64,000 nucleotides of DNA from Dethiobacteria bacterium. Lineage in GTDB: Bacteria > Bacillota > Dethiobacteria > DTU022 > UBA8154. Shown here piece after piece: positions 5,168-26,850 of this stretch. The stretch's first letter is position 1; every line of letters starts with the position of its first letter. The translations under genes were made by a program, and so were the position numbers. The notes under the pieces were generated by a model. That model had not been told where the DNA came from, searched no databases, and saw nothing but the letters and a program-made list of their open reading frames with translations. The stretch is taken from assembly GCA_050948785.1 (NCBI GenBank), contig JBMNEM010000002.1, positions 193,721 to 257,720 on the forward strand, read 5' to 3'.

Positions 5168-5212
5168 AAAAAACCCCGGCTTTTCCATGCAAAGCGGGGC
5201 TTTTTGCTGTAA
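5168..5212 (-). terminator. Intrinsic terminator/attenuator hairpin of riboswitch 1 expression platform (also terminator-like on the plus strand)
   Basis: On the minus strand: GCCCCGCTTTGCATGGAAAAGCCGGGG followed by TTTTTTATATG. The homologous element at 9820-9862 follows riboswitch 2. Confidence 0.45.
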
Positions 5213-5244
5213 AAGAAATCACTTTCTTAAACAGACAATATCCA

Positions 5245-5435
5245 ATTCACATACACCTTTGCACGGAAGGCTTGTGGAAAACATTTACCGGGCAGGTCTC
5301 CTGGCTTGCAGCTCATCACTTGCTTTCACCTTCCCGAAGAGGCTCTCCAGTGGCATATAATGAAAGTAAATTCCCTGCTTACAGTGGCCGGACCACCCGG
5401 GATTTTCACCCGGTTCCCTTTCAACCCGATTTGGC
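5245..5435 (-). promoter_or_regulatory. Cobalamin (AdoCbl) riboswitch 1
   Basis: The reverse complement contains AAAGGGAACCGGGTGAAAATCCCGG ... GCCACTGTAAGC ... ATGCCACTGGAGAG ... GGGAAGGTGA ... AGCCAGGAGACCTGCC, i.e. the GGTGAAAATCC core plus the B12 box GCCACTG. It is upstream of DUF2292 gene 1 and the SLH/DUF4430/ECF operon. Confidence 0.8.
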
Positions 5436-5559
5436 ATCGGATCTACCCTGATAAAACCTTTATTCAATTTTTTAAATTAAACTTCAACCTTATTTAAAAA
5501 ACGGAAACACTATTCCAGTTTAAAATTGGAATAGCGCCTCCGTTGTTCGGTCAGCACCT

Positions 5560-5724: not shown

Positions 5725-5905
5725 CAAGTTAAACACCTCTCTATTTCCCGTAGAGTTTCTGGTGCAAAAAACAGGCAGGCTTTCTGGCTTCGGGTCATCG
5801 CTCTCCCCCACCTTCCCGGTTTCCCAGTGGCATTCCGGGGGAAACTTCCCCTTTTACAGCGGCGGAACCGCGCGGGATTTTCACCCGCTTTCCTTTTACC
5901 GGCAT
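5725..5905 (-). promoter_or_regulatory. Cobalamin riboswitch 3
   Basis: The reverse complement contains GGTGAAAATCCCGCGCGGTTCCGCCGCTGTAAAAGGGGAAG...AATGCCACTGGGAAACCGGGAAGGTGG...AAGCCAGAAAGCCTGCC. No separate terminator is present, so control probably acts at translation. Confidence 0.75.
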
Positions 5906-6093
5906 GGACTATATTCCAGTGCATACTCCTGACCGGCACCTGTTTATGAAATAATCTTCAATTAAGAACATAATATCCCAACAGCCCCCTCTTGTCAATA
6001 ACCGGTTCTCCCCCATCTAAAAGCCTTTGGGGCTGCCCTTGTATTAAAGAGCAGCCCTTTAGCTGTGTCAGCATATCTGTATAGGCGGAAAAA

Positions 6094-9000
6094 CTACTCC
6101 AAGGGGGAAAGCCGGTAAAGCATCACCGCCGCCTGGGCACGGTTGGCATTTTGCAAGGGGGCAAAAGTGCCATCTCCCATGCCGGTTATAATCCCCTGAA
6201 TTGTGCAAAGGCCAACACCGTCTTTTGCCCACACTGCAATCTCATCCCTATCGCTGAAAATCCCCAGTTCCTGTGCAGCAGCTCCCTCAGATCCTTCCGG
6301 GCGGAGAACCCTGCCGATAATCGCAGCCATCTCCTGCCGGGTGATTGAACTTTCCGGATCGAATACCGTTGCGCTTCTGCCGCTGAGGATGCCATGATGG
6401 TATGCCCGGGCCACAGCTTCGTAATACCAGCTATTTACATGAACATCGGTAAAAGGCAGCTCCATCCCCGTATCATTGTAACCCAGCAAACGGGTAACCA
6501 AGGCGGCGAATTCTGCACGGGTAATCCGGGCACCGGGCTCAAAAACCCCTTCCCCCCGGCCGCTGATAATCCCCGCGGCGGAAAGTACCCCGATGGCCTC
6601 CCTGGCCCATTCATAGCCCTGCAAGTCGGTAAAAGGTATTTTAGTTTCTTTTTCCTGAGACTGCATGACAGTATAGAAGCTTAGGTGGTCTGTGAAGAAA
6701 GCAAATGTCTGCGTTTCCGGATCGTACTCCCCGCCCAGGCCGATAGGCACCAGAAGGCCCTCACCGTCATTTTCCAGTCGCACTCCTGTTAACCAGGCGC
6801 TTTGTTCCGGAGACAGCTTACCTAAGTGGGAAAAGTCTATAGTTATTTTTATCGGTTTGCTATATTTATCAAGTTCTTTTCCAGTGTTCCGCTCCTCCTG
6901 GGCGGTGTCAACCACCGTCAGGGTTATCTCATAAATCCCGCTTCCAACACCGACAAACCCGGCAGTTCCCTCCGGCACGTCTTTGGAAAGGATCTCCTGC
7001 TGTTTGTTGGCAGCGAGTTCCTGGACAAACACCTCTATCTGCGAATTATCGGCGGCGGTTAGCCGGGCAAATTCCTCGGTTAACAAAGCACCGCCGGCCA
7101 GTTCAACCTTAATACCCTTGTTTTCTAGCACGATCGCATGTTCTTCATTAACATTTTTAAGAAAATCCGGTGAAAAAAGCACTTTCCCGTCGGCCTTTTC
7201 CTCAAGGCTGAGCTTGGCTACGCCTGTTTGCTGCAGGTTTTCCTGCAAGGCCCGGTCATCAGCTGAAGAAGGTTGGAAGGTTTCCTTTGTTGCCCCCCCA
7301 CCGCCTCCTCCGCTACTACTCCATCCTTCCGAACCTTCCTCTTTTGTAAAATCATCAGTATAATAAAAAACCACGGCATCGCCTTGTTTCAACAAATATT
7401 CGTTTAGAGCCAGCGTAGTATGTTTACCATTGACCTTGTACATCCAACCACTAAGGGGGCCTTTGTCAAGTTCGTTAAGCCATTCCCCACTGGGCGCTTT
7501 GATGCCACTGACATAGCTGTCGTAAGACGCCCTGTATTCCATGCCTTTTTCAGATAGCACTTTGTCAAACATATCAAAGACCGTAGCCCCCTGCGGCATC
7601 TCCACACTGGTAGTTGGTATCCAGGTCTGCCCGCTATCACCGGTGAGTTTGAAGGTGACGGTAATATTACTTTCCTCGCTAGAGCCACCTGTACCTTCAT
7701 AGGTTACCGCTACGGTTGTATCTGCAGTTATGGTGAAGGTATATTTGTTATCCTCCAGGTCTGCTTTCTTGTCTTCACCGTTGACGGTAAAGGTGGCTAC
7801 CTGCTTGCCTGCCGGAGCTGTTACCGTTATCGTTACTGCAGTGTTCTCTTCAATTTCTCCAGCATCAGAAGTTGATGTTAATCCTTCGCCTGTTAAGGTT
7901 AAAGTGTAAGTAGCCGGTTCCGCTGTTTCGATCTTTAGTATAAACTCTTCGCTGGCAGCATCCCCCCCCAGGGCAGCAGCCCCGGCCTGGATGCTGATCT
8001 CGCCAACTGCAGCGGTACCTGTAAAAGCGACGGTCACCTTTTGAGCAGCGTCTTTGGTGATTTCCTCAACAGAAAGCCCGGTTTCTCCGGTATCAATTGT
8101 CCAGTTGTCCAGATCTTTTGTTTCTGCCGGATCTGCATATTCATCACCAACCAGGTTTATTTCAACCCGGGGATCTACCTCGCCGACGTCAATAACCGCT
8201 TCGCTAGAAAGTACAGGCCACCTGCTGTAGTAGAAGAACACCTCATCATTTTCTTGAACAATATAGTCGGCAGCACCAACGTCAGGGGAAACCCCGTTTA
8301 CTGTGTACGTCCAACCGTCCCAGCCGCCAAAAGCACCATTTTCCTCACCTGCAATAGAGTTGACCAAAATACCCCAATCAAAATACTGCAATTCATAGGG
8401 AATCCCCTTGGCATCCAAGCCCTGCTCCAGAACATCAAGGGCCGTCGGCTGATCGCCGGTGGTCAGCACTTCAACTTCTGCAGTAGGAAAAATTGTTTCC
8501 GTCTTTCCTTCCACCGTTAACTTCACAACTACCTTTTGGGGCTCGGCAAACTGTATCTGGCCCATTCTATGCCTTGTGGATTCACCATGTTTTAAATCTG
8601 CCAGGGCCAAAAGGGCCTGCACGGTGCTCATTTTTACCCCACCGGCAGTACCCTCTTTATACCAAAAACTGCCGTCCTCCTGCTGGTATTTTAGCAGGAC
8701 GTCAAGCACTGTTTGGCCATCTTTTACCCATCGCCCTTCCGGGTTCAGCACATCTTCTCCCACAGCAACTAATCCGGAGATAACTGCAGCGTTGGAATTA
8801 CAGTTTTCCTCTCCCCACATGCCCTCCAAAGCAAAACCGGCGTTGTCCTGCTGCTTACTATGCAGGAAGTCAATGGCTTTTCCAATTGCTTCCTGTGCAT
8901 TGGATTTTTTCTGGTGGTTGGATAAAGCCGTCAGCGCCCAGCCCGTATAGTCCAACTGGCTGAAGGCTCCAAAGCTGCCATCATCGTTTTGCTGGTTGAT

Positions 9001-9564
9001 CAGGTGCGTTATAGCCATCAGCTGACATTGAGTATTACCCCAGCCATCCACAACACCAAGTTCTTCGCCCACATCCAAAAGTACTATGGCCCAGATATGC
9101 TTTCCCAGGTCGCCAAATGCGCCGTCTGGTGGAATCTGGGGAGGACGCCGCTGCTGATCCGCCAGTTCTGCAAAAAGGTTCCTGCCGTTCCATATGTCGG
9201 CAGGGTTTTTCCCCACTGCCAGCAGCTTGAAAATGTAATAAATGTGCTCGTTTCCTGTTGTATTCGCTGCAAACCCGGGATCGTTCTCCCGCCACCCCTG
9301 GCCAGTCCCCCACGGTGCTTCATTTAAATCCTCACCAACGCCCCAAAGCGCCGGCAAACCTTCCCAGGAGTCGGGTGAAGGGTGGTTCGTTTGATACCAA
9401 GCGACTGCATTTGCTATCGATGCCTCCAAATCTGCTCCTGTTTCAACACCGCCACTGCCGGCCATAACAGGCAATGGACCTATTATAGAAAAGATCATGA
9501 ACAGGCTTAAAAAATATACCGGCCATTTTTTCAACACGCTTCGCTTTAATAACAACCTTAACAA
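6094..9564 (-). CDS. Large S-layer-anchored surface protein: signal peptide, prenyltransferase-like alpha-barrel domain, two DUF4430 domains, Ig-like/Thr-rich repeats, three C-terminal SLH domains
   Basis: 1156 aa. DUF4430 motifs GWTYTVNGVSPDVGAADYIVQENDEVFFYY and SGWMYKVNGKHTTLALNEYLLKQGDAVVFYY. SLH repeats at the C-terminus (FTDLQGYEWAREAIGVLSAAGIISG etc.). Preceded by riboswitch 2. Confidence 0.8.
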   Translation of the reverse strand: MLRLLLKRSVLKKWPVYFLSLFMIFSIIGPLPVMAGSGGVETGADLEASIANAVAWYQTNHPSPDSWEGLPALWGVGEDLNEAPWGTGQGWRENDPGFAANTTGNEHIYYIFKLLAVGKNPADIWNGRNLFAELADQQRRPPQIPPDGAFGDLGKHIWAIVLLDVGEELGVVDGWGNTQCQLMAITHLINQQNDDGSFGAFSQLDYTGWALTALSNHQKKSNAQEAIGKAIDFLHSKQQDNAGFALEGMWGEENCNSNAAVISGLVAVGEDVLNPEGRWVKDGQTVLDVLLKYQQEDGSFWYKEGTAGGVKMSTVQALLALADLKHGESTRHRMGQIQFAEPQKVVVKLTVEGKTETIFPTAEVEVLTTGDQPTALDVLEQGLDAKGIPYELQYFDWGILVNSIAGEENGAFGGWDGWTYTVNGVSPDVGAADYIVQENDEVFFYYSRWPVLSSEAVIDVGEVDPRVEINLVGDEYADPAETKDLDNWTIDTGETGLSVEEITKDAAQKVTVAFTGTAAVGEISIQAGAAALGGDAASEEFILKIETAEPATYTLTLTGEGLTSTSDAGEIEENTAVTITVTAPAGKQVATFTVNGEDKKADLEDNKYTFTITADTTVAVTYEGTGGSSEESNITVTFKLTGDSGQTWIPTTSVEMPQGATVFDMFDKVLSEKGMEYRASYDSYVSGIKAPSGEWLNELDKGPLSGWMYKVNGKHTTLALNEYLLKQGDAVVFYYTDDFTKEEGSEGWSSSGGGGGGATKETFQPSSADDRALQENLQQTGVAKLSLEEKADGKVLFSPDFLKNVNEEHAIVLENKGIKVELAGGALLTEEFARLTAADNSQIEVFVQELAANKQQEILSKDVPEGTAGFVGVGSGIYEITLTVVDTAQEERNTGKELDKYSKPIKITIDFSHLGKLSPEQSAWLTGVRLENDGEGLLVPIGLGGEYDPETQTFAFFTDHLSFYTVMQSQEKETKIPFTDLQGYEWAREAIGVLSAAGIISGRGEGVFEPGARITRAEFAALVTRLLGYNDTGMELPFTDVHVNSWYYEAVARAYHHGILSGRSATVFDPESSITRQEMAAIIGRVLRPEGSEGAAAQELGIFSDRDEIAVWAKDGVGLCTIQGIITGMGDGTFAPLQNANRAQAAVMLYRLSPLE

Positions 9565-9904
9565 GAAAATCTCCTCCCTTTGGTTTCTGCTTTCCTGTTT
9601 TCAAAACGTTTCCTTAAAATACTTTTTATAAGGCTGAAAATTTACTGGGTTACATCTCCCCTTCCCCTTTGTTTGATCGTTAGCCGGCCTCCCCTCAACC
9701 GCCTACTACCCACCTTTTGGCGTTATGATTAGGACGGTTTTTCTACAGCACAAACCTTAATTTTTGTTGTTTGTAATCAACCCCCTGGCCATCACTTATG
9801 ACAGCTCTAAAAGACGCTACAAAGCCCCGGCTTCCATGCACAGCCGGGGCTTTTATGCTGCAATAAAAGAATTGGCCTTTTAAACAGGCATTTTTCCAGC
9901 TCAC

Positions 9905-10080
9905 CCAGACCTTTGCACGGAAGGCTTGTGAAGTATCGTCAAGGCAGGTTTCCTGGCTTGTGGCTCATCGTAGCTTTCACCTTCCCGGATAGCTCCAGTG
10001 GTATGCTGAAAGCTGCTCCCCACTTACAGTGGCCGGACCACCCGGGATTTGCACCCGGTTCCCTCTTCCACCCGCTCCTG
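9905..10080 (-). promoter_or_regulatory. Cobalamin riboswitch 2 (paralogue of riboswitch 1, about 85% identical)
   Basis: Same aptamer sequence as 5245-5435 (GGTGCAAATCCCGG ... GCCACTGTAAG ... GCCACTGGAGCTATCCGGGAAGGTGAAAGC). A terminator-like hairpin at 9820-9862 follows it on the minus strand. Confidence 0.8.
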
Positions 10081-10149
10081 TCAGCGGATCACCTTGACAA
10101 TGTTGTTTTAAATATTAATTTTAGAAGATACTTTTCAATTTTTCCATAA

Positions 10150-11185: not shown

Positions 11186-11319
11186 GCAAAACTCCTTTTA
11201 ACTCTTTTGTAAAACAGAATTGGAAACACTTAAAAAAAGTCTTAAAAAAAGCTGCCAAGGCACCGAACGTAAAAATTTTTCTAGAAGAATAAGTTTCCCT
11301 ATAAAAATCATACTGGAAA

Positions 11320-11470
11320 GAGCCATATTCATTCTTTTTTAGCTGTACAAAGACCGACGTCGTCTTTTGCCCACACGGTGATCTCTCCCTGTCGCTGAAA
11401 ATTTTCAGTTCTTGTGCGGAAGCTACATCAGGCCCCTCCGGCCGGGAAATCCTGCCAATGATCGTAGGCA
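11320..11470 (-). pseudogene. Remnant of an SLH-domain surface protein gene (3' fragment only)
   Basis: The product ...IIGRISRPEGPDVASAQELKIFSDRERSP... matches ...IIGRVLRPEGSEGAAAQELGIFSDRDEIAVW... near the C-terminus of the 6094-9564 protein. Nucleotide homology to 6230-6340 is also evident. Confidence 0.5.
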
Positions 11471-14400
11471 TTACCTTTTATATTTTCAACAGCGATGATG
11501 ATCTCACTCCGCAAGTCTTTTATTCGTTGCTCAATACGCTCTAAATAATCATCGCCCAAAAATCGCCGAAGGGTTTCCAACTCGGCACGGAAACGTTTCA
11601 TTCCCCTTTTGGAAACTTTTCCATCCATTTCTTCTATCGTCAGCCGGCGTAAGGTATACTTTGGTAAGGTCTGGTACTCCTTTAAATCGCGCAGCAGGGT
11701 TTGAATAAAGGGCAGGTATTCTTCCAAATCGGCAGCATGCTTTTCCCAGGCACTGCGTAGGTTGTTTTCGGCCTTGACAAGCAAAGATTGTTCACTGGGG
11801 CGCATGTGTATTTGCTCACGGTAGTTCTTGATTGCCTCGTAAGCGGGCCAAAATAAAGGACTTAGGGTCTCGCGGGGCGTTTCTGGCCAGCAGTGAACAC
11901 ACGGCAGCGCTTTTTCAAGAATTAGGGGACGTACCACTGGCTTTTTGCTTGCCGTATCAGGTACGGTGTGGATAAAAAGCTGCAAACCTTTCCGGCGGAA
12001 GACCAGCAGTTCATTTTGTTTGGCTATTTTCGCCGTTTTCACCCTTGCGGGAAAATCAGCCAGCCCGGAGATCAAGTCCGGGTATTGCGCCTGCATTGCA
12101 AAAAATTCCCGCCGGAGCGTCGTCAGCAGGCTTTCCTCTTCGCCTTCCTCCGGATTACGGTTGATGCGTCTGAAAAGTTCGGCGGGGGAAGGGGTTTCAT
12201 CCGGAGCAAAAATTTTCGCATCTTCACCCAGGGTATTGTGGATCAAGAACATCTTCTGTGCTGCTATTTCACGGCTTTTAACCACTTCAGCGCCCTGTTC
12301 CGTTGGAAAAAAGTTATAGATATACAATGTCCGGAAGACCTTGCGCCCAATACGGTTGATGCGTCCCAGCCGCTGAATGACACGCGTAGGGTTCCAGGGA
12401 ATATCATAGTTAACCACCGCACCGGCCCGGTTCAGGTTTATCCCTTCAGAAAGTTTATCAGTAGCCACGAGGATATCGAAATCATCACGCTGCCTTTCTG
12501 CCGCATGGCCGGCATCGAAATTGGCATTCAGATCATCGAAAAAACCCTTGCCCAGCGAACCTTCAGCTACCAGCACACGTTCAGGAAAGGCGGCCTGCAA
12601 AACGGGGGCAATGTGTTTCACTGTATCCTGATATTCGCTGAAAATAACAACCTTGCGGCGCGGTTCACCGCTACCGGGTTGGGCTTCTATAATCTCCCGC
12701 ACAGCTTCCACAAGGCGTTTGCTTTTCGGATCGTTCACTGCCAGTTCCAAAGCCTCCACCCGATCGGCAATTTGTTGGAACAGCTCCAGATCTGAGCGGA
12801 TATCCGCAAGGAACTGTTCCGGTTCATCAAAATCTTTAATAACATAAACGTGATCCTGGTGCGGCCTCAGGTTTTTTTCTGCCGCCAGGCGCGCCGCGAA
12901 TTGCCGCAGCTCCTCCTCGATGGTTTCTTCGTCTTCTTCCCAGATTTTTTCTATTAAATTTCGGTCCAGAATATATTGGCCTGTTTTTTGGATGAAAGCC
13001 AAAATAATAGAATGAACGCTCCTAAAATTAGCCATGCTTTTGACAAAAGCGCCAAAGGAACTTTCGAAACGTTTGACCAACAGCCGGCGCATAAATTCGT
13101 ACAGGTTGCGCTGCTGCAGGTAGGCAAAATTACCCTTTTCATCCAGCTGTTCTAATTCACTGCTGTGTTCGTAAGCAAAGGGCTGGTAAATGGCACCCCG
13201 GAATTGTCCTTCCTCGCCGAAATATTCATTAATTACCTGGTTGTAGAAAGCCGATTGTGCGGTAGTTAGTTCGTAAAACAGCTCAACGGGATCGGCAACC
13301 CCGGAGAGCTTGGCAATTTCCTGGGCATACACCGGATCGCGTTTCAGGTCGAGCCGGTTACGGCGGATGATAACAGGTTCTATAACCGCACGGATTTCAT
13401 CTGCCAGCTGCCTTACCCGTTGCTGGGTGCGAATTACATTGATAGGCGGCGGGGTTTCAAAAATATCGGTATAGAATCTTTCAGCCCGGGCTTGTTTTTC
13501 ACCACCGGCGCTGTGGTAACGGAGGATGTATGAAAGCTTGCGGAATTCACTATTGTACCGGGCAAAGCGGGCAGCCAGCCCTTCATCAAGGGTCAGCGTT
13601 GATTTGCCCGGCGGGATAAAAAGTTTGAGCAGGGCAAAAATATCTGCCGGCGCATTGTTGAAAGGAGTTGCCGTCAACAGGATAACACCCCGGTTGGCAC
13701 AGATCTGGCTTAGGCGTTCATAAGCCGCCGTGTCTTCATTGCGGAAGCGGTGTGCCTCATCCACCACAATAGTAGTGACCTCCTCGCCGTACATTTCAAG
13801 ATATTCCTGTACCTTGTCCAAAGCCCCCAGGGAATAGACTTCCCAGTCATATAGTTCAAAGTCGTTCAGGTATTTATACCAGCCGGTAGCTTTGGTTTGT
13901 CGATCACCGATCAAAGCCGGGGGGCAGATCACAAGCCCGCGGCCACCTCGTTCCCGCGCCAGCCAACTGGCGATCACCGATTTCCCCAGCCCAACCACGT
14001 CGGCCAAGATCACGCCGCCATATTCCTCCAGCACGGTGAGCGCCTGCTGCACGGCCTCTTCCTGGTAACGATACACCCTGTAGCCCCGTTCTTCCATTAA
14101 ATGTTTAATCTGCGGGCGAAGCACTTTTTGTTCCATCAAATCCAGGTAGGTTTTAAGCACCAGGGCGTAAGCCTCAAAAGGCGAAATTCCCGCCACCTGG
14201 GTTTGCCGATTGATGATACGGACAATCTGCTCCTTGCGTTCATCAAGTTCGCTAAGCGGGATAGCTGTCGACCACAGATCGTCAAAATATGCTTCCGCAT
14301 CTCCCCAACCATAATCGCTGATTTCCACGTTGAATTCATGCTGCCCCAACAAACCGGCGCGGGTCAGATTGCTGGAACCGGTAATAAAGCGCCCGGGCGC

Positions 14401-14857
14401 ATCGATGAGTGATTGCCCGGCCTCATCCAGGCGGAACAGGTAAAGTTTGGCGTGGTTGGGATCCAATGTTTTGCGGATATGCAGACGGCCCTCTTCCAGA
14501 AGATGCAAAAAGAAAGAAACCTGTCCATAAAATTCTTGCGTATCCAAGGCTTCATCTTGCAGCGCAGTGCGCAAAGAGGCAAAGAAGCGCCCCACAAGTT
14601 CCTGCTGGGTGCTGCCGGCTGCCTCTGGATCGGCCACCTCCAACACCCGGCCCAAACGCAGATCGGTATCCATCCCCACCAGAATTTTGAAGATGCAGGT
14701 CATCGCTGCGCCCCTTTAGCGCCTCATAAAGCTCCCGCCAGCCGGAAAAATAGAAGAAACCCACCAAAAATTTCAGTTCCCGGCTATGCTGGATGAGCGT
14801 ATGAATGCGGCCTTTAAGACTGCGTTGCCTGGCGTTGGTGATGAAATTTTTAGCCAT
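11428..14857 (-). CDS. PLD-family nuclease (HKD) fused to an SNF2/DEAD-like helicase; one apparent frameshift near 14700
   Basis: The N-terminal piece MAKNFITNARQ...LKFLVGFFYFSGWRELYEAL (14857-14700) continues in another frame as ...HAKLYLFRLD...GSSNLTRAGL (HKD motif). Helicase motifs I (DVVGLGKS), II (DEAH) and later motifs follow. The total is about 1140 aa. Confidence 0.7.
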
Positions 14858-17800
14858 TACGCCTCACGCTCCTTGCTTTGCTGATGCGCTCCCAGACTAA
14901 CTGGCAGACGGCCCGGTAAACTTCCTTCCGCTCCTCTTCAGTCAAGTCCAAAGCATCGAAGACAAGATCGTCCAGCGCCTTGCGATCGGGCAATGGATTG
15001 GGTTCCTGTTCGGCAATGGGGATCTTAGACTGAGGATCGATGCCGCATTCGGTAAAAATAGAAACAACTGGCCTTTGTTTTAATCGTAAAAGTATATCCT
15101 TAACCTGGTTTCCCCAATTAACTGCCAAGTTAGGTGACAAAACTAGTTGTTGCTTTACTTCGTAGACCATAAGACTCCTCGGCCCCCCACCTCCGCCATA
15201 CTGTCTTGCTTTTATTTCGTCAGCAAGAATTGAAACAACAGAATTTAATATAAGTTGAACAGACTGTGTTACAGTTGCCGCATATAGTCTGCAATCAGCC
15301 AACAAGGGTTTTGTTGAAGTGAAAACAGCGATCCTTTCCCTAAGTTCCTTTCCCCAAAAAACGTTTCCCATTTCATTAGGGACAGACCACCACCGTGGAC
15401 GGGAATTGCAAGTTGGTCGCTTAGAATACCCTTGTTTTTCTCCCCATTTAATATACGCCAAGGCCTTTGTACCCTTTAAATCTTTTTTGCTTTTATGGCA
15501 CATAAAGATACGGTATTTAAAATCATCCTGTTTGATCACGACACTGCGGCATTCGCGCGGGCTCTTGATAACCGGCTTTAAAAACTCTTCCTCGATTTCC
15601 CCTTCCCAGCCGGCACCGTTGCACACCCGCAACAGGCCCGGTTGTGAACCGGGGCCCAGCGGCTCCAGGTAGAAAAAGTCGTTTGCGCCGGTTTTTATAC
15701 CGAAACGCACTTCTGCAATCTCCCCCAAACGCACCAGCTTGTCCTTGCCCTTTTCCAGGATGGTGAAAAAGATATCCGGTGCACGCAGGTATTTGCCGCC
15801 CCATTTATCGCCTTTGTATTGGCCGGGGTCCTGGAGCCGGGATGAAACCTGGCCTGCATCGGAACCCTCCCGCAGCAGCTCGCCTGCTGTAACCGGCAAG
15901 ACGCGAAAACTTTCATCCCGTAATGCAGCCCCGGCCTCTTCAATGGCCAACAGGTTTTCGGAGAGCACCGCTTCCTCAAAAGGCTGTTTGAAAGCCACAA
16001 AGCGTGTCAGCTGGTTTTCATTTACCTTTGCAGGCGCACCGGCAACGGTGATAATCGTATTGATATCGGCACGGGTGAAGGAACGGCGGGCGTGATTGTC
16101 GATCACCAGGTGAAGCGGTGCCCGCCGCAGAAAAAACTCCTGCAGCCAGGAACCATAACCGACATCCAACCAGGAATTGGAACAGATGAAAACATGCACC
16201 CCCCCGGAATTAAGCAGACGCAGGGAGCGGATATAAAAATAAGTATAAAGATCGGAGCGGCCGCTTGGTTTGCGCCCCTTTCCGAACCGATCAGGTCGCG
16301 TTTGTGACAAAGCAAAATATTCGGGAAAATCAAGACGTACCATCTCCAGCAGGGCATCCTTATATTCCTTGGGGGTTAACAGCTCTTTGGGGTCGGTAAT
16401 ATTTTCCTGGCGCACATAAGGCGGGTTGCCGATGATGATGTCAAAACCTTCAGAGATCGAAGAAGATCTCGGCAAATTCGATGCTCCAGATGAAGGGACG
16501 CTTACTTTTCAGGCTTCTTTTCTGGGCCTGCAGTTCGGCAATTTCAGCTTCCAAAACGGCACACCGGACCGCTGCCTTTTTTGTAAGAACCGGTTCAGCT
16601 TGTTCCGGCCTTGTTTCTTTCATGCCAAGTTGTTTGGGCTTCAGACTTTGTATTTGCTTCCGGCGTGTATCAATTTCCGCCTCCAGGATATCCCGGAAAA
16701 CAGCCAGTTCTGCGTGCTCGATAAGGTGCGTAATCGTCGCTTTTGTTGTGGAAAATAATCACGCTTTCTTTGTTTAAGCCGGGTGACCCTGCGCTTGATT
16801 GCCGGCGGCAAATTGTCGTGGCCCTGCACGGGAAAGGTTTTGCCGCCAACGCGCTGCACCAGTGAATCGCCGGTGCGCACCTTGAAGGTTAAATTGGGCA
16901 GCAACGGCTCTTAACGAGCTTCGGTCTTCTTCAGGCATGTCCACAAAAAGGGTTAACCACAGGCGCAGTTGGTTAATCCACACCGCCCAGCGTTTGGTTT
17001 CCACACCGTAAAGGGAATGGGCGATGATGTCTTTTTTTCGCTTGAAGGGGGTAGGTTTCGCAGCCTTTAAATCCCCGGGGGTATTGTTGCGGGAATAGAG
17101 GTTTTCCAGCACCTGTTCCAGTACCTGCAGCATACCCACTTCAAAAGCCCCGGAGCCGGCCGCCGGGTCGCACACAGTGACCCCTTCCAGCTGTTCGATC
17201 AATGTTCGAATTTCAGCGGGGGAAAAGTCGCCCTGCTTCTGGTATTCGTCATAGGCCTCACCGGTGCCGGCTTCGCGGAAGAAAAGGCGGTAGTAGGTCT
17301 CTCTTTTCCGATTTCGGTAGTTTGCTCCAGCCATTTGACCAAGGCCAGGCGGCACATCAAATCCACTTCCACCCGCGGTGTATAGACTGCCCCCTGATCC
17401 ATATTTGTGATACGCTCGAAAATAATACCTAAAAATTCGGGATTTAGTTCTAATTCCTCATCATAGAGCTCATTTTCTTCCACTGTAAAGTTGTACTGGA
17501 AGAGGAAATCAAAAAAATCGTCGATGAGGTCATCGGGAACAAAGAGCCCCCGATCATCTACTGCCGGGCTTACGTTTAAACAGCTCCCCGTTCAGGTAAG
17601 GGCGCCATCCTGGAGCGCTTCTCGGGTCTCTGTAGAGAACGGTGCATTTCCATAAGCCACCTTACGCCCATATGGCGAACTAAGTGCCTCAAAAAAAAGG
17701 GGTTCCAACCATTCCCGGTAGAAAGTGCCGGCAGGGCCGGCCTGCCGGTACTCCTCCCAAAAGTCCTGCAGGAATTTAGTGTTGTCTGCCAGCCAGCCCT

Positions 17801-18458
17801 TCTTTTGTACAAAGCCCAGAAAAATAATGCGGATAACAAAAAGCAGGGCAAAATCCAGTTTTAGATCCGTGTCGTCAGTACCTTGCACAGCACCGGCGAT
17901 GGCATCAAACCTGGGCTTAAAATCCTTGTAAAATTCATCTGAAACGGCTTCAAGTGAGAAGGTTCCCAGGATCCCGGCGAGCGTTGAAAAATCGGCACGC
18001 TGCATCTGCTGCAAAAAAGTCTTGTTGGGGAGTTCCGGATCAACGAAAAACGTATAGCGCCGGAAGGTGCTAAATTGCCGCTTCGTGCCATGGTATGTGA
18101 CCGTTATTAATGAAAACCGAAAACACCCGGCATTATCATAAAAGGCAAAAATACCGGCATTGTGATTGCCGGACTTGAGGATACGTTTGGCCAGATCGTA
18201 CTGTTTGCGTTTACCTGTACGGGCGGTAAGCTCCTTTTGAACATACACGGTGCCTATAATAAGGGTTTTACCATCTGAAAATTCAACCACGCCGATCTGT
18301 TCCGCCCTGCCAAAGGAACCATCTTCCTGGGGGGATTTTTTAATAGGAGTCCGCACCGGCCTGAAAGAAGGCGCTACATGACGTAAAAGGTTAACCAGTA
18401 GTTCATTTGCAAACCCTTTACAAAGTTTTTTCCATTTCACTAACATCGCACCATCCAT
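14850..18458 (-). pseudogene. Large gamma-class N6-adenine DNA methyltransferase (type IIG/IIL or PglX/DrmMI-like), broken into at least five reading-frame fragments
   Basis: Fragments in order on the minus strand: an N-terminal domain (18458-17592); ...GAVYTPRVEVDLMCRL... (17483-17199); motif I DPAAGSGAFEVGML (17355-16774); RTGDSLVQ (16904-16641); and an intact 541-aa C-terminal ORF with IIGNPPYVRQE (motif IV) and a TRD-like tail (16475-14850). Its stop overlaps the helicase start. Confidence 0.65.
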
Positions 18459-18792
18459 TTCTTTGCGTAAATTAAAGTTTGACTATTCGGTATAATCTCG
18501 CAAGAAAATCACCTTTCTCGCAGGCTGCATGAACTATACGGTTTTTTCTCCCCTGTGGTAAAACGCGGCGGATCTGGGTTTAATGTATCGCTAACATACC
18601 TCACCAATATTTCAGCAAGCAGATCTTTTTGGCAACCGGTAGTCAATAGCTTCTTTTGGGGGGTTGGCCTGCGGGGTTCTAAACCAATATTATCTATTAA
18701 TGCCCATTATTGTCAAGCCTTCCCTTGTTTAAAACTGTGAACTGTAAAATTGTGCAGTTTAGCCGAAAACTAGGATAAAGGGTTTTAAGGCG

Positions 18793-20163: not shown

Positions 20164-20485
20164 ATGGATAAAAAAGGAAAGATGCCGGGAATTAAATACG
20201 CTGCAGCCCTTAAATATAAAGAAGAGGAAAATAATGCACCCCGTATTGTGGCTTTCGGCAAGGGTGCACTGGCGGAGAAAATTATACAGGTGGCCCGGCA
20301 AAACAATATTCCTTTCCACGAGGATCCCGAACTCGCCTGTGCTTTAAGCAGCTCTGGAGATCGGGCAGGAAATACCCTTCGAACTTTACCAGGCCATCGC
20401 CGAAGTGCTGGCCTTTGTCCTGTATTTGGGACAAAAGCCCTCCGGTAAAATATTGTTTTTAATCAGGAAGGAGATTATTCCATAA
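20164..20485 (+). CDS. FlhB C-terminal domain-like protein (EscU/YscU/HrcU family, YlqH-like), apparent frameshift near 20345
   Basis: N-terminal part ...APRIVAFGKGALAEKIIQVARQNNIPFHEDPELA.... The conserved C-terminal LEIGQEIPFELYQAIAEVLAFVLYL is only recovered in the +1 frame. Confidence 0.55.
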
Positions 20486-20620
20486 TCAAGAAATAATAAA
20501 GAATACCAAAAAGTGCTTCATGCCATCATGACAGCACCGGCAGGACGAATGCAAATACCGGCCTGCATATGCGCCGCGCGCCGCGTATTCTGCGACGGCC
20601 AACGGAAAGGATTCCTGAAA

Positions 20621-23600
20621 ATGATTACCGGACAAAAAATCATCTCTCTGTTAAAGAAAATGCTGCAAAGCCCCGTCCTTCGCTCTGCCGCACCATATCT
20701 TGGTTTCTTCCTGATGACCGCTTTCTTTTTGTGCATCTTCGCCCGTATCGGCGGGCAAAGTCACTTGGGACCGGAACCTGGAAGCTCAGGCAGTTCTCCT
20801 CCTTTGACCGGGGCAGCGGAAAGCAACCTGAAAAACGATTATTTTCTGAGCGTGCTGCTTTTAACCCCGAAGGGACAAAATACCCAGAGCGCTGCACAGC
20901 ATCTGCAGCAAGCACTGCTCCCCAATGTAGAAATCGAAATGAAAACATTAAATGAAATGCCGGAACTTACGCCGGGCAGTTATGATTTCATCTACCTGGA
21001 AGCCGGGCTCTCCAACGACCAACTGTTCACTGCAGCAAAAGAACGCCTCAGTGCTTATGTGCAAGCAGGGGGCGTGCTTTTTTTAACGCAGGAGTATATT
21101 GACCATTTCCCCCGGGAATTCCTGGGCATCAGCAGGGTGGAGCGCATAAAATCCCCGCAAATGAATTTTTCCTACCCTTCCGTGCGGGGCAACCTGGCCG
21201 GGCTACAGGAAGTCTGGCGCTCCTTTGCCGAGCTTTATGGACATTATGAAGGCCTGGAACCCGCCTATTATACCGCCTGTGATCTCAGGGCCGCAGCCGG
21301 CACCGCTGTTCCCTTGGTGGAGCAGGAGGGCCTGGCCTGTCTGCTGGCCCATGATCTCGGGGAGGGTCTGGTTCTCTGGTCCAACGGCTTTTTACCCGGC
21401 GAGTATTTTGTGACCAGGTTTGATTTTGTTCCCACGGGAGAGCAGCCGTATTTTCATTTCGGCTCTGCCAGCGCCAACTACCTTTTTCGTCAGGAGTTAT
21501 TAAACCTGGTTTCCAAAGAAAAATACGGCTTCAGTTTAAAGAAAAGTTATGGCCCTTACGGCCGGCCGGGCCTGGCCTGGCAGAATCATTATGAGGAGAT
21601 CTCTTCTTTTCCCTCCCGCGATATGATCAAATGGATCGATCTTTTGGCCGCTCATGATCAGATCCCCACCTTTTCCCTCATCCGGGGAAGTTTTCAGTGG
21701 GGACAGTGGCAGAGCAGTTTAAGCATCCATCTAAACGAAGGCACAGACAGTGAGCCTGTTTTCCGGGGGACAACGGATAATTGCTTCTATTCAGCCGGGG
21801 AAAGGCTGGCCGGCGCGGACAAATACCTTCTTTTCTCCACATACCCCCTCTACAAAACGCTGCTCTCAGAAATTGAGCAGCCCTGCCGGCCCTATCCGCA
21901 GCTTCGTCGACTGGAACGGCAGCGGCCAAAAAGACTTGCTTGTGGGCACGGCGGAGGGAACGCTCCATCTGCTGAAAAATACAGGCACAGCAGAACGGCC
22001 CCGTTTCCAGGCGGCCCAGCCCCTGACCACCGCGGCAGGAAGTATTTTGGCCGTAGAGAGCCACGCCGCGCCGCTGGTTTATGATTATAATGGCAACGGG
22101 CTCCTTGACCTGCTCGTCGGTGACGGTGCAGGCAGAATCACCCTCTTTTTAAATACTGGCAGTGCTGGCCAGCCCCGTTTCGCCCCGGCCGGCTTTCTTC
22201 AAGCCGGGGGCAAGGTTTTAAAAACAGCCGGTGCCGCGGCGCCGTTGATTGTTGATTGGGACGGGGATGGCCAGCCTGATTTACTCGTCGGGGAAAGCAG
22301 CGGCAAGGTTATTTTCTTTCCGGGGTCGCCACTCAACGGGAAACTCAATTTTAAAGCGGGGCAACCGCTGCGCCATGCGGCCGGAGAGGTGCAGGTAAAC
22401 TCCTTTGCCGCCCCTTTGGCCGTCGACTGGAACAACAACGGCCGGTTGGATCTGCTTGTCGGCAGCGGAAAAGGGGAGATCAATCTTTACCTCCACCAGG
22501 AGACAGGCGAACTGTTGGATACAGGCAGCATTACCGCCCGCTCCCCCAACTTTTTCGGCAGCAGCACGCTCAAACTGGGACATAACGCCGTCCCCCTCGT
22601 CCTGGACTGGAACAATGACGGCAAAAAAGATTTGCTGACCGGACAGCTGGAATACGGCATTCCTTGCCCGATCGACAGCCCTTCCTTCCCCTACCCCCGG
22701 GAACTCCGCGAGAACCTGCGCTATGCCCGGGAGCGCCAGATCCCCATCATCCCCCACCTTTTCCTGCACGAGTTTTTAAGTACAGAGCAGGAAAAAAGGG
22801 AAGTCGCGCTGCATAAAAAAGCTTTTCAAGCCGTGGGCCTTCCCTGGGAGGACGACACCGGCGCCAATCACCATACCTGGCGCATCTCCAGGGATAATCC
22901 CCTGGGGACTTTCCACAATTTAAAACAGGCCGGTATCTGGTGGGATTTCGGCTTCAGCCCTCCGGGCAGAGTGGGCGCCCCCCGGGACGGAAAGAATTTT
23001 TTAATGGTCATTCCTTTTGCCCTGCCCGGGGAAAATTCCGATGCGCCTTTTCTCCTCTTCTCGCCGGCACCGGATTTGCTGAACTTTCCTTATGCCTGGG
23101 ATGTTCTTGCCCGCTTTGATCTGCCTGCCACATACTTTGAGCACATTGAACATTGCCTCGATCCTGACGGAACAATCTATCCTACATTGTTGCAGAAGAT
23201 CGCGCTGCTGAACAAATTTAAAGATCAATATGAATACAATTTTATGACGGAGGAACAGATGGCCCGCGCCTTCTTAAACACCTTTTTTGCCGGTGTAAGC
23301 GTGGAGATCACCAACGGGAAACAGCTGCGGCTTATACCGGATTTTGCCCCGGTACCTGCCCAGGCAAAAGAATACCGCGGCACGCTCGGCCTGAAGATCG
23401 AACTGGGGGAAGCCCTGCAGGGAAAAGAGCTGGATACTTCCGGCTTCTTCTACCATCAAGCGGCGGAGGGGGATTACTATCTCGGTCTGGAACAGCCCCT
23501 GGACATTCATTTTGTCGAGCAGTCCAGCCGGCAGAAAAAATGGCACATCGTCCGCACCAACGGCCCGGTGGAGATCGAGGCAACGGGGGATAACACTTTT

Positions 23601-23765
23601 ACCCTGACTTTAAAAGCCCACGGCTTGCAGGAAATCAAATTCTTTGCCCCGGCCCCCTTAAAGATCAGCGGAAAAGACTTAAAAATAGCCAACGAGGGTT
23701 CCTATTACACCGTCACACATTTTGGCGCTCCGGTCACAATCAAACTCACCGCCGTAGAAAAGTAA
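20621..23765 (+). CDS. Large membrane-anchored FG-GAP/VCBS-repeat protein (integrin-alpha-like beta-propeller repeats); apparent frameshift near 21890
   Basis: ATG at 20621 follows GGAAAGGA. It has an N-terminal TM segment. ORFs 20513-22084 and 21750-23765 overlap in different frames. It carries repeats of DWNGSGQKDLLVG, DYNGNGLLDLLVGD, DWDGDGQPDLLVGE, DWNNNGRLDLLVGS and DWNNDGKKDLLTG. Confidence 0.6.
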
Positions 23766-24027
23766 CCGCCACTCCAAATACGTATATTAATTTTCCATTT
23801 TTATCTGCAACCATCCTTTCTTTTCCTACGTCTTATATCATAGGAATGCTTTTTTGGCATGAACCATTGGATTTAGTTTCAGTAGTGTGTGCTGGCCAAT
23901 TGTGAACGTGTCTATCAGTCTAAATAGGCAAAAAATAGGCGCAAACCAGCGCTATTTATTATCCATATTTTACCGGCAGCACAAGAAGGCCCAACAGCTT
24001 GAAAATTCAGGGGAGAGCAAAAAGACT

Positions 24028-24700
24028 ATGCAACCAATCATCCAGGTAAACAACCTGATTAAAAAATACCGTATGGGCAATGAGGTGGTTTCCGTTTTAA
24101 ACGGCATCGATTTGCAAATTTATCCCGGGGAGATCCTCTCCATTCTGGGAACCTCCGGCAGCGGTAAAACCACTTTTTTAAATCTTGTTTCCGGCCTCGA
24201 GCGGCCCACCAAGGGAAAAATCATGATCGACGGCCATAACCTGAACAAAATCAGAGAAAAAAGATATGTCCGCCTTCCGGCGCCGCTACATCGGCTTCGT
24301 TTTTCAGCTCTACAATCTGCTTCCTGCTCTCACATGCCCTGGAAAACGCCGTGCTTCCCCTGATCCTGGAAGGGGTTACTCCCCGCGAAAGGGAAAAAAA
24401 GGGGCGTGCCCTGCTGCAGCAGGTGGGCCTGGCTGAGCGCCTGCGGCACAAGCCCTCCGAACTCAGCGGCGGCCAGCGCCAGCGCGTCTCCATTGCCCGG
24501 GCGCTGATCAACAACCCCCGGATTATCTTTGCTGATGAGCCCACCGGTAACCTGGATTCCAAAACAGCGGCGGAAATTTTGGAACTGCTGACCTCCACTG
24601 TCCGGGCACAAGGCCAAACCATGCTCATGGTTACCCACGACGCCACGGGTAGCCGGTCACGCCGATCGCATCATCGAAATGGTCGACGGGCACAATCATG
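24028..24700 (+). pseudogene. ABC transporter ATP-binding protein (MacB/LolD-like), at least three apparent frameshifts
   Basis: Walker A GTSGSGKTT, then the frame is lost at the GAAAAAAG run near 24255. ...SAFRRRYIGFVFQLYNLLPALT is in another frame. LSGGQRQRVSIARAL and the Walker B FADEPTGNLD are in the 24351-24701 ORF. The tail VAGHADRIIEMVDGHNHEL is in a further frame. Confidence 0.65.
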
Positions 24701-24742
24701 AATTACGAGACAAAAGAATATTTGAGGAGAGGAGAACAGACC

Positions 24743-26850
24743 GGTGAAAAAAGTATCCAGCAATATTTTTTTTGTTTTTGTTCGGCATTTATCTTTGCTT
24801 TATCCAGCGTTGTGCTGGCAAATCAGGCCGAAGCATCAGGGGGTGATCCTGCCGCGATCAAACCGCCCCTGCTGAATGTCATTGCCGTGCGCCTGACTCC
24901 GGAAAAACCCGGTTCCCAGGAAGTATTCGAAGCCAGTTTTACGATCAGGCAATTATCGGCCACGAGGACGCCAGAAACGTTGCTCGTCGAATTTAACGGC
25001 CTGGGCAATTTTCAGGTGGCCGAGGGCTTCACCAACCGCAAGAATCGGCTACCGCTTTACCACGGATGACAGCAACTGGGTTCACTACAAGTTAAAAAGC
25101 ATTAAAGGACGCAAGGGAAACGAAATCAGCCTGAACTTTACATATGACTATACGAAGATTCTGGCGGATTTAAACAAGATTGGCACCTGCCTCCCAGCAG
25201 CTGAACTGTAACCCTGCCCCTGCCGGAAGTCGACTCCGATCTTTTCCCGCCCAATATCTCCGTCAGGGATGTCTCCCTGGAAACGACTCTCCCCGGGGAG
25301 GAGGGTGCTTTTAACGCAGTCATTTACCTGGACAACTTTAGCGGCACCGCTGCCCGCCAGGTCTCCATTGTAGTTGACGGCCAGGATAATTTTGAGGTCG
25401 CCGAGGTCTCCAATCAGAAATACCTGCCAAACATCGCTCCGGGACGCCAATAACTTTTGTCACCTTTAAATTAAGAGCGAAAGAGGAGCGCACCAATAAC
25501 AGCCTCAAGCTAAACCTCGCCTACTACTACGGGGAGGAATCCAAGGAAGGGCAGCAAAACCTGCTGGTCAATCTTCCCCTGGAGAAAGCTGAACCGGGCA
25601 GCAAACCACAGCTGAAAGTGCAAAACTTCACCCTGTCCCAGGGAGCCAACACCGGTGAGCATCTACTGCATCTGACCCTGGCAAACCTTGGACAGGGAGC
25701 GGCCCGGGATATTTCCCTCACCTTGGACGGGGGCCAGAGCGTCTACGTGACACGCGGTTCAAATGTCAGCTACCTGCCGGAAATCAAAGGAAACGAAAAA
25801 GCGAAAATAGAATATTTTCTGGGCGTCAATGCCGGTGAGGGCATCAATTTTTATCCTCTGAATCTGAGCTATGGAATATCAGGACCGCTGGGGAAACAAA
25901 TTCAGTCCTCCCAGGAAACAGTCGGCATCAACGTCGCCGAGCTGTATGGTTCCGGCAGCGGGGCAAGCCGAAGGTGATGATCAGCAAATATTCCCTTTCA
26001 GAAGAAAAAATTCTGGCCGGCAATGTGGTCACCCTCTCCCTGTTTATTGAAAATACACATGCCCGCCCGGTGCAAAACATCAAGGTGGCCTTCGGCGTGA
26101 TCCAGGTGGAAGGAGAGAGTGGGACAAGTTCAGGGGGCACTGTTTTTTCGCCGGTGAACAGCAGCAACAGCTTTTTTATTGAACAAATCCCTGCCCGCAC
26201 AACTTTTGAAAAAAATATCGACTTGTATGTCGACCCCAACGCCACAGCTAAAACTTACATTGTCCCCATCACCATCGAATACGAAGACCAGCAGGCCAAC
26301 TCTTACTCCGCCAGCGAAATGGTCAATATCCCGGTGACCCAGGAGTGCAAGCTTCAAATACTTTCCCTGGAAGTGCCCCCCACGGCATTTGCGGGGCAGC
26401 CCGCCTTCATCGGCGCCGAATTCGTCAACGTGGGGAAAGTCGCCCTGAATAATTTTATCGTCATGCTGGAAGGCGACTTCCATAAAGAGCAGGCCTCTTA
26501 TTACGTGGGCAACCTGCAGATCGGAGACAGTGATTTTTACCAGGGCACCATTTTCCCGGAAAGTGAAGGAAAGCTTAACGGCAAGCTGGTTTTCTCCTAT
26601 ATTGATAATAATAATAAGGAAGTGCAACTTGAAGAAGCCTTTGAACTTGATGTGCAGGCGATGGCTCCCCCCATGGATTTTCCCGGCGAAGAACATCCCG
26701 CGGATGCCGGGGCATCCGGGCGGCTTTGCCGGCCGGATGAAAAGAGCGCTGTTTTGGCTCGTCCCGCTGATTGCCGTCGGGGTGGGAACAGGTATCTACC
26801 TGTGGAGAAGAAAAATCAAAAAGAAAAATGAGGAGTTTTTGGATGCGTAA
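24743..26850 (+). pseudogene. Secreted and C-terminally membrane-anchored surface protein with CARDB/COG1361-like (DUF11) repeats, spread over at least four frames
   Basis: Signal-peptide-like start around a T8 homopolymer. Repeat-type segments such as LTLANLGQGAARDISLTLDGG and LSLFIENTHARPVQNIKVAF. The C-terminal TM anchor FWLVPLIAVGVGTGIYLWRRKIKKK appears only in the 26530-26850 frame. It sits between the ABC ATPase and the FtsX permease. Confidence 0.45.

Follow-up and report, generated by a model that had tools for sequence, protein, structure and literature searches.

Two frame-disrupted genes in a Dethiobacteria genome belong to a widespread methyltransferase and HKD-SNF2 nuclease-helicase pair, best read as a putative minimal restriction-modification module

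A stretch of 64,000 nucleotides from a Dethiobacteria bacterium (assembly GCA_050948785.1, contig JBMNEM010000002.1, positions 193,721 to 257,720 of the forward strand; hereafter the window) contains a methyltransferase gene and a nuclease-helicase gene whose reading frames are both broken. The question that this locus raises is whether the two genes are in decay or were only disrupted in the assembly, and to which kind of system they belong. The initial annotation of the window had described them as a decayed defence island inserted into an SLH surface-protein gene and had left their classification open. The explanation that we consider likely to account jointly for the observations is that the module was horizontally acquired and is self-contained with its own promoter, that its frameshifts are artefactual, and that it encodes the methyltransferase and the restriction partner of a restriction-modification (RM) type of system. 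Judged by sequence, the pair is best read as a putative minimal ATP-dependent, Type III-like or BREX-related RM module of an unnamed family. The module, its two genes and their motifs are located as follows.

About 11.47–18.72 kb (about 7.2 kb), minus strand: the module of two genes, methyltransferase (M) then nuclease-helicase (R)
14850–18458 (3609 nt), minus strand: M, gamma-class N6-adenine DNA methyltransferase with a fused target-recognition domain (TRD)
11428–14857, minus strand: R, fusion of an HKD nuclease of the phospholipase D (PLD) family with an SNF2 ATPase, 1141 aa when intact
17169–17143, minus strand: motif I of M, DPAAGSGAF (aa 429–437)
In the open reading frame (ORF) 16641–16904, minus strand: GDSL of M
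16427–16416, minus strand: NPPY of M (aa 675–678)
14454–14446, minus strand: codons for H and K of the HKD motif of R

The Pfam domains of M (Eco57I and MmeI_Mtase) and the positions of its motifs agree with the earlier description of a gamma-class adenine methyltransferase of about 1200 aa carrying motif I, GDSL and NPPY. Conservation in M was assessed over 38 full-length homologues, and the intact M and R proteins were taken from L001, a related contig described below. DPAxGSGAF and NPPY are invariant across the homologues compared, while the segment between motif I and NPPY contains a coiled, poorly conserved insert. Residues 1–283 form an N-terminal alpha/beta and helical domain (AlphaFold2, predicted local distance difference test (pLDDT) 88), which is followed by the methyltransferase core. 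The TRD (residues 831–1130) is hypervariable, with 63% identity between L001 and L002 (a related strain) as compared with 95% in the core and 96% in the tail. This C-terminal tail of 70 aa is strongly conserved (75–96% identity where the helicases are at least 66% identical).

The ORF at 11428–14703 (minus strand) encodes 1091 aa with PLDc_2, SNF2-rel_dom and Helicase_C domains, which confirms the predicted fusion of an HKD nuclease with an SNF2 helicase in a protein of 1091 or more residues. The N-terminus of R (MAKNFITNA...KFLVGFFYFSGW) is found in another frame, in the ORF 14552–14857, and its ATG overlaps the stop of M by 8 nt (ATGGCTAA), an overlap that had been recognised earlier and by which R is translationally coupled to M. 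R is intact at 1141 aa in P0001, P0002, P0244 and P0245. It carries a single HKD motif, in which the HxK...GSxN catalytic residues of the predicted nuclease are conserved (H134, K136 and G159-S-S-N162 are invariant in 15 homologues). The SNF2 motifs I, II, III and VI (GLGKS, DEAH, TATP and QRxGRxxR) are likewise invariant in 15 homologues, and the C-terminal region is conserved. A sequence search of the PDB with R matches SNF2 cores only, and the match to the ResIII model of Pfam is confined to 50 aa surrounding motif II (27 bits). Foldseek with a poor full-length model of R returned only generic SNF2 ATPases, RapA first; the model is consistent with an SNF2/RapA-like protein and was used no further.

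In the window, M is split into ORFs of 288, 94, 193, 87 and 541 aa and R is broken near 14700, so that the frame breaks reported earlier (R near 14700 and M in at least four places) are real features of the deposited sequence and could be located against an intact reference. This reference, L001, is contig Ga0534105_00182 of the Joint Genome Institute (JGI), which is syntenic with the window and 99.2% identical over window positions 1427–24882. Comparison of the locus in related strains yielded intact copies of both genes not only in L001 (M of 1199 aa) but also in L095 and L096, two other haplotype contigs of the JGI sample that yielded L001 (M of 1192 and 1199 aa, R of 1141 aa), and in L002 to L005, which represent a strain of 93–96% identity from biogas metagenomes (M of 1189 aa, R of 1141 aa). 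Alignment to L001 places the indels as follows.

14693–14714, in R: patch 1, 4 indels, four one-nucleotide insertions in 22 bp, net +4 nt
16455; 16727–16756; 16908; 17294/17303; 17568; 17603/17607, in M: patches 2 to 6, 10 insertion columns and 1 deletion column, net +9 nt (6 indels at 16455–16908 and 5 at 17294–17607)
20353–20542: 4 indels
21902: 1 indel
24263–24827: 11 indels
25551–26701: 7 indels
11250: a lone one-base change in an intergenic A-run

Compared base by base, the window and the JGI contig differ in 39 indel columns, the window carrying an insertion in 35 of them. An identical set appears against L001, L095, L096 and L002, and hence every frame-breaking indel is private to the metagenome-assembled genome (MAG) of the window. 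The indels lie mostly outside homopolymers and, within the patches, equal or outnumber the substitutions, as in the 565 bp of 24263–24827 with 11 indels versus about 5 mismatches. More than half of them (23 of the 39) are situated at 20353–26701, beyond the pair, in a non-defence neighbourhood of FlhB-like, FG-GAP and ABC genes, where the FG-GAP gene of 1071 aa in L001 is present in the window as 523 and 671 aa and the ABC ATPase gene of 230 aa is reduced to 158 aa; genes farther downstream are broken as well. Outside 14.7–26.7 kb, the change at 11250 is the only indel in the roughly 49 kb of the window that were aligned to the JGI contig. After the indels are stripped, M of the window diverges from that of L001 with a ratio of nonsynonymous to synonymous change (dN/dS) of 0.18 and R with one of 0.22, intact alleles giving 0.13–0.50 among themselves. 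Of the 80 family loci that come from other genomes, no more than 4 show a split frame, L059 (below) among them.

From this comparison of assemblies we consider it highly probable that the frameshifts are a local consensus error of the MAG assembly in a strain-heterogeneous stretch and not biological decay, because the insertion-rich patches spare about 49 kb and strike the housekeeping-type neighbours equally, unlike natural pseudogenisation. The strain heterogeneity itself is evident, as three haplotigs co-exist in the one JGI sample and the window is a mosaic of them. Both M and R are probably intact in the actual organism. The description of the locus as decayed thus does not hold, since four other haplotypes are intact and the indels are private, rich in insertions and also present in neighbouring genes. 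This outcome corresponds, at the level of assemblies, to the refuting condition that the initial annotation had set for itself.

It is an unlikely alternative that the strain has genuinely and recently inactivated M, R and some neighbours by many small insertions. The frameshifts do stand in the deposited record, in which the fragments of 1091 and 541 aa are PGAP proteins (MGI6307547.1 and MGI6307548.1), and such events frequently remove or silence RM genes and systems. The window is also a distinct haplotype, a mosaic of the three haplotigs that co-exist in the one JGI sample, which at 17–18 kb is nearer to L096 than to L001. However, bacterial pseudogenes are deletion-biased whereas the indels here are nearly all insertions. 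Indels that match or exceed the substitutions within patches, 11 of them in 565 bp of the ABC ATPase gene, do not agree with such a process, nor do the equally struck flagellar-type and FG-GAP genes next to some 49 kb with one indel, the dN/dS of about 0.2 and the intact state of all other haplotypes.

A programmed, reversible ON/OFF switching of RM expression by frameshifts is extremely improbable. RM methyltransferases are classic phase-variable genes, and methylases with an Eco57I domain are enriched among the targets of programmed inversion (PMC9881135). However, the indels are outside simple-sequence tracts, are spread over at least seven separate patches and strike unrelated neighbours, and the locus has neither inverted repeats nor spare TRD cassettes nor a recombinase. 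Programmed inversion of the shufflon kind was likewise rejected, as a search of 11–19 kb for significant inverted repeats and for spare TRD cassettes was negative. An error of basecalling driven by a methylation motif was rejected informally, the contexts of the inserted bases sharing no motif when compared by eye.

The consensus-error reading makes the main lesson of the window a cautionary one. What seemed to be a decayed defence island most probably reflects MAG consensus errors, the fragments of which are already protein records, and gene calls within 14.7–26.7 kb of the window should be distrusted. Once the probable artefact is set aside, a compact, widespread and RM-like family is left as the residual value of the locus.

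Two side observations concern other assemblies. In L059 (Caldicoprobacterales MAG SBF912LR0HQ0068), the R homologue is frameshifted at aa 971 beside an A-run (12909–12913). The isolate name suggests, unconfirmed, a long-read MAG, and a Dethiobacteria MAG that also carries the module, SBF912SR8HQ0008 (L023), shares the SBF912 prefix; the case is a hint of frameshift errors in long-read MAGs of this type. In the long JGI contig itself an ABC ATPase gene is split (63 and 508 aa in L090 19750–20765, as against 565 aa in another sample, L091 12711–13726), and therefore the reference assembly also has errors.

The breadth of the family was assessed in a scan with one genome per species, which found a relative in at least 516 species. 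From these, 80 loci were retrieved (Bacillota, Chloroflexota, Bacteroidota, WOR-3, Thermotogota, Planctomycetota, Proteobacteria, Elusimicrobia, the Candidate Phyla Radiation (CPR) and others), and ORFs in the family loci were called and clustered anew. R forms a cluster present in 82 loci and M one present in 56, whereas every other cluster occurs in at most 9, and no third conserved gene accompanies M and R among the 82 loci. Where 8 kb or more of upstream sequence is available (30 loci), M is always present, in 28 cases preceding R on the same strand; the M-R pairing is obligate. The helicases of the family are 50–93% identical across phyla. An apparent prevalence of split genes, with homologues of 250–940 aa, was rejected as apparently an effect of length ratio in the search, which returned nothing longer than about 1.7 times the query (at most 940 aa for a query of 541 aa and at most 450 aa for one of 283 aa). 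Full-length methyltransferases of 1200 aa were thereby missed and fragments falsely implied split genes; in the 80 loci, full-length genes of 1040–1250 aa are usual.

The manner in which the family evolves is RM-like, with a hypervariable TRD that is swapped between co-existing haplotypes. L095 and L001, which come from one metagenome (JGI sample 3300053716), are identical in the first 400 aa of M and differ in the TRD (aa 831–1130; dS 0.51, dN 0.28), a pattern that resembles a recombinational switch of specificity among strains. In a few relatives the TRD and the conserved tail (from about aa 901) are a separate ORF. These are L024 (4522–9408), L084 (13362–17112) and L097 (3526–7164; A. silvanus plasmid pMESIL02), and such an ORF would be an S-subunit-like split at the boundary of M core and TRD. 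In L024, a Schlafen-like gene lies between the M core and the split-off TRD ORF.

About half of the loci carry 0.2–8.6 kb of variable genes between M and R. These include Schlafen/AlbA_2 with HATPase_c_4 (8 loci), AbiEii (6), DarT with Macro (4), DUF4268 (3), Fic (3), resolvase, TIR and KAP NTPase. Further cargo of the junction consists of AbiEi, DarG (Macro), IrrE-peptidase/DUF4411 and ORF6N. Accessory genes at or just upstream of the junction are found in L015, L020, L024, L025, L030, L037, L038, L043, L044, L058, L062, L064, L065, L072, L075, L078, L085 and L087. The M-R junction is a recurrent insertion point for accessory defence and toxin-antitoxin genes, and RM operons are familiar as hosts of nested Abi and toxin-antitoxin cargo.

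Since REase_MTase_IIG is the best PADLOC match for M (142 bits), it has to be considered whether M alone is a bifunctional Type IIG enzyme with an N-terminal nuclease while R is an independent Type IV-like or repair enzyme. As in the Type IIG enzymes MmeI and Eco57I, a gamma-class methyltransferase and a C-terminal TRD are present in one polypeptide, and the first 140 aa of M fold as an alpha/beta unit (helix, helix, three strands, helix, three strands; pLDDT 88) at the place where Type IIG enzymes carry their PD-(D/E)xK domain. However, no conserved D...(D/E)xK triad is present in this domain across the 38 full-length homologues, its conserved polar residues being R80, K83, Q86, D108, R114, S116, R134 and T136. 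Foldseek against the PDB gave no meaningful match to the N-terminal model (TM at most 0.22), and a PDB sequence search with M gave no match. The strict co-occurrence of M and R and their 8-nt overlap argue for one system, and the separation of the two into unconnected enzymes is very improbable indeed.

By curated models, the pair falls outside BREX, DISARM and the well-characterised RM types, so that the decision to leave its classification open was justified. In the annotation with PADLOC and other hidden Markov models (HMMs), the best match for R is C3a139 "HKD+Snf2" (E 1e-34), and the cut-offs of the named systems are not reached by either protein. Scores of the more specific models are given below.

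DrmD (NF038317): 135 bits, cut-off 610
NF038318: 92 bits, cut-off 950
PglX NF033452, NF033455 and NF033451: 26, 28 and 21 bits, cut-offs 500, 900 and 400
DpdE: 103 bits, cut-off 500
Phospholipase-D anti-phage protein: 114 bits, cut-off 1100

For BREX (types 1, 2 and 6), the PglX model fails and PglZ and BrxC are not in the window locus. For class 1 DISARM, the DrmD model fails, DrmA and DrmB (DUF1998) are not in the window locus, and no such conserved cluster occurs in 82 loci. For Dpd, the pair fails the curated threshold. The initial annotation had remarked on the missing PglZ, BrxC and DUF1998/DrmB, and indeed none of these genes is adjacent to the pair at the window locus.

The closest described system is Hma, or "Type-2 BREX-related (BR)", which consists of a DUF499 ATPase, an N6-methyltransferase, an HKD-Swi2/Snf2 helicase and DUF3780 (Rakesh & Krishnan, NAR 2026, PMC12839542). 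The window pair shares with it an N6-adenine methyltransferase and a helicase in which an N-terminal HKD endonuclease is fused to a Swi2/Snf2 core. Among solved structures, RapA is nearest to R in fold (a weak match), as reported for the BR helicases, and the logic proposed for the system is RM-like, the methyltransferase marking self and HKD-Snf2 restricting (PMC12839542). In contrast, the window pair lacks the DUF499 AAA+ ATPase and DUF3780, and the HmaA model of PADLOC covers only the C-terminal helicase lobe of R, at 80 bits. DUF499 does not adjoin the pair here, is not among the families of the 83 intervening and upstream-adjacent proteins of the family loci (a Pfam scan that matched 39 families, of which the 25 commonest are considered), and no cluster of about 1000 aa is conserved. 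DUF3780, a gene present in 98% of Type-2 BR loci (PMC12839542), was not found at the window locus or in the same 83 proteins.

With class 1 DISARM the inventory overlaps, as SNF2 helicase (DrmD), PLD nuclease (DrmC) and N6-adenine methyltransferase (DrmMI) are all represented, with partial HMM matches to DrmD (135 bits) and DrmMI (65 bits). The differences are that DrmA and DrmB/DUF1998 are absent, that PLD and SNF2 are in one protein, and that the scores are far under the cut-offs of 610 and 950. It is very unlikely that the pair derives from one of these larger systems (BREX, class 1 DISARM or Hma/Type-2 BR) as a fragment, or serves it as an accessory, with the other parts lost or located elsewhere. 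Such an origin would account for the partial PADLOC and NCBIfam matches to DrmD, DrmMI, BrxHI/II, HmaA and PglX, and Type-2 BR does use an N-terminal HKD-Swi2/Snf2 helicase with an N6-methyltransferase (PMC12839542). However, the scores fall far short (DrmD 135 versus 610, PglX at most 28 versus 400–900), no PglZ, BrxC, DrmA, DrmB, DUF499 or DUF3780 occurs here or in the 83 proteins scanned, and the 82 loci show no third conserved cluster.

The likeness of the pair to Type III and Type ISP enzymes lies in the order of its genes (mod then res) with overlapping stop and start, as in a two-gene motor-nuclease system, in the TRD on the methyltransferase, and in a partner that is a superfamily 2 (SF2) ATPase fused to a nuclease, from which cleavage dependent on collision or dimerisation would be expected. 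In contrast to the beta-class Mod of Type III, M is gamma-class (motif I before motif IV) and Eco57I/MmeI-like, and the ATPase of R is of SNF2 instead of Res type, with an N-terminal HKD instead of a C-terminal PD-(D/E)xK nuclease. In Type ISP, the functions that are divided here between two polypeptides are in one. From Type IIG, the pair would be set apart by the N-terminal domain of M described above, which has neither the PD-(D/E)xK triad nor, at pLDDT 88, a significant fold match in the PDB.

The PLD-fold nuclease coupled to an ATP-dependent motor is shared with SauUSI, NgoAVII/CglI and C3a139. However, SauUSI is methylation-dependent and has no cognate methyltransferase; in CglI and NgoAVII, nuclease and helicase are separate proteins (R and N) and the methyltransferase is a C5 enzyme; and C3a139 is defined as a neighbour of type III CRISPR (Shah et al. 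2018, PMC6546367), an adjacency that is absent at the window locus. The bare pair of a Type II RM coding sequence (Cj0031-like) and a PLD(cd09178)/SNF helicase coding sequence has been mentioned briefly for complete genomes (Milman et al., NAR 2023, PMC9881135). Those loci have the same two-gene architecture, but their TRDs undergo programmed inversion whereas the window contains no inversion cassettes. No experimental characterisation of the family of HKD-SNF2 and IIG-like methyltransferase was found in the literature searched.

The domain composition suggests how such a minimal RM module may work. M would read an asymmetric site through its TRD and methylate an adenine, and thereby mark self DNA. 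At unmethylated sites M would recruit or license R, probably via the conserved tail of M. R would then translocate on double-stranded DNA using ATP. Finally, two copies of R would have to meet, form one active site and cut, because each R has just one HKD motif. A meeting of this kind would resemble the collision cleavage of Type III and Type ISP enzymes and the dimeric HKD nucleases BfiI and SauUSI.

How the module arrived at its present place can be approached from its right-hand end, where two features coincide.

11344–11471 (128 bp), minus strand: scar of an SLH surface-protein paralogue, detected by tblastn with the protein of 6094–9564 and equal to its aa 1079–1121
11469–11480: right-hand boundary of the module, the point at which each of eight module copies from unrelated contexts ceases to match the window DNA

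The scar consists of two tblastn pieces in different frames with 65–68% identity, 11471–11385 (aa 1079–1107; 43.5 bits) and 11400–11344 (aa 1103–1121; 30.8 bits), with a joint E of 5e-12, the best of 200 control windows reaching 23.1 bits. The SLH remnant seen earlier is thus real, although its extent had been placed slightly off, at 11320–11470. The last 14 codons of R extend into the scar in another frame. The scar and its internal frameshift are common to L001, L002, L010, L095 and L096, and therefore the scar is old and real. In L023, a Dethiobacteria MAG whose R is 88% identical, the module stands in a different context without the scar. The module boundary coincides with the start of the scar (11471), and acquisition at or into the SLH paralogue is a fair inference. 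The further claim of the initial annotation, that an SLH gene received the module and lost part of its sequence in the process, fits the position of the scar exactly at the boundary and would be the simplest reading. An exact look-up of the neighbouring AP_endonuc_2 protein in search of an empty site gave only contigs that also carry R, and this search found no uninterrupted SLH gene.

Module copies occur on Thermaceae plasmids, while tblastn against 50,697 phage records found no match. At the other end of the module, a scan found a promoter-like element about 230 nt upstream of the M start.

18716–18689, minus strand, within 18677–18718: TTGACA, 16 nt, GATAAT, with 11 of 12 consensus matches

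The 42-bp block 18677–18718 is 86% conserved with the otherwise unrelated locus L013, which suggests that the promoter may move along with the module.

Several points weigh against the joint explanation of an acquired, intact RM-like module. The canonical D of HxK(x)4D in R is off the standard spacing (the D at +7 is unconserved), and AlphaFold modelled full-length R poorly (mean pLDDT 67, predicted TM-score (pTM) 0.39), the HKD region scoring low. Methylation, ATP-dependent translocation and ATPase activity, M-R interaction and cleavage by an HKD dimer are all deduced from the domain families. A real and very recent burst of frameshifts in the strain keeps a small probability, the artefact reading resting on the comparison of assemblies. 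The zone of indels is regional and not genome-wide, and it needs a cause, which might be strain heterogeneity or the filling of a gap with long reads. Lastly, no 5' SLH part lies upstream of the module, and the module may instead have been inserted beside an existing remnant.

A more far-reaching proposal, which we offer only tentatively and regard as doubtful, is that the pair represents an unnamed class of minimal ATP-dependent RM with a mechanism of its own, which occurs in at least 516 species from more than 15 phyla. If this is so, the N-terminal domain of its PglX/IIG-type methyltransferase would be dead or repurposed, and the enzyme would pass unmethylated sites to HKD-SNF2 via its tail of 70 aa. 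Among the relatives that connect Type IIG enzymes, BREX, DISARM and Hma, this class would be the simplest, and its M-R junction would also be a place at which Abi and toxin-antitoxin cargo docks repeatedly. Present defence classifiers would tag the module only as "Type IIG" or "other DNA-modification". The pair is a compact two-protein candidate in which to study how a PglX/IIG-type methyltransferase signals to an Snf2 motor-nuclease, which bears on the mechanisms of BREX, DISARM and Hma. The module could also serve a second question, how Abi and toxin-antitoxin genes nest in RM operons.

The surroundings of the module do not agree with the term island. The pair is flanked by FliK-like, FlhB-like (Bac_export_2), FG-GAP, ABC, TIM-barrel AP_endonuc_2 and SLH/DUF4430 genes, and no other defence gene was found flanking it at the window locus. 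There are no tRNA genes in the window and no recombinase gene adjoining the pair. The protein of 6094–9564 has three SLH repeats and a DUF4430 domain, and three cobalamin riboswitches (Rfam RF00174, 98–120 bits) sit upstream of the SLH/DUF4430 surface-protein genes.

9926–10111, minus strand: cobalamin riboswitch
5757–5958, minus strand: cobalamin riboswitch
5274–5465, minus strand: cobalamin riboswitch

In view of this arrangement the SLH/DUF4430 genes form a B12-regulated cluster, which probably serves the capture of B12. A DNA repeat found by blastn (5170–5454 and 9821–10100) corresponds to two of the three riboswitches.

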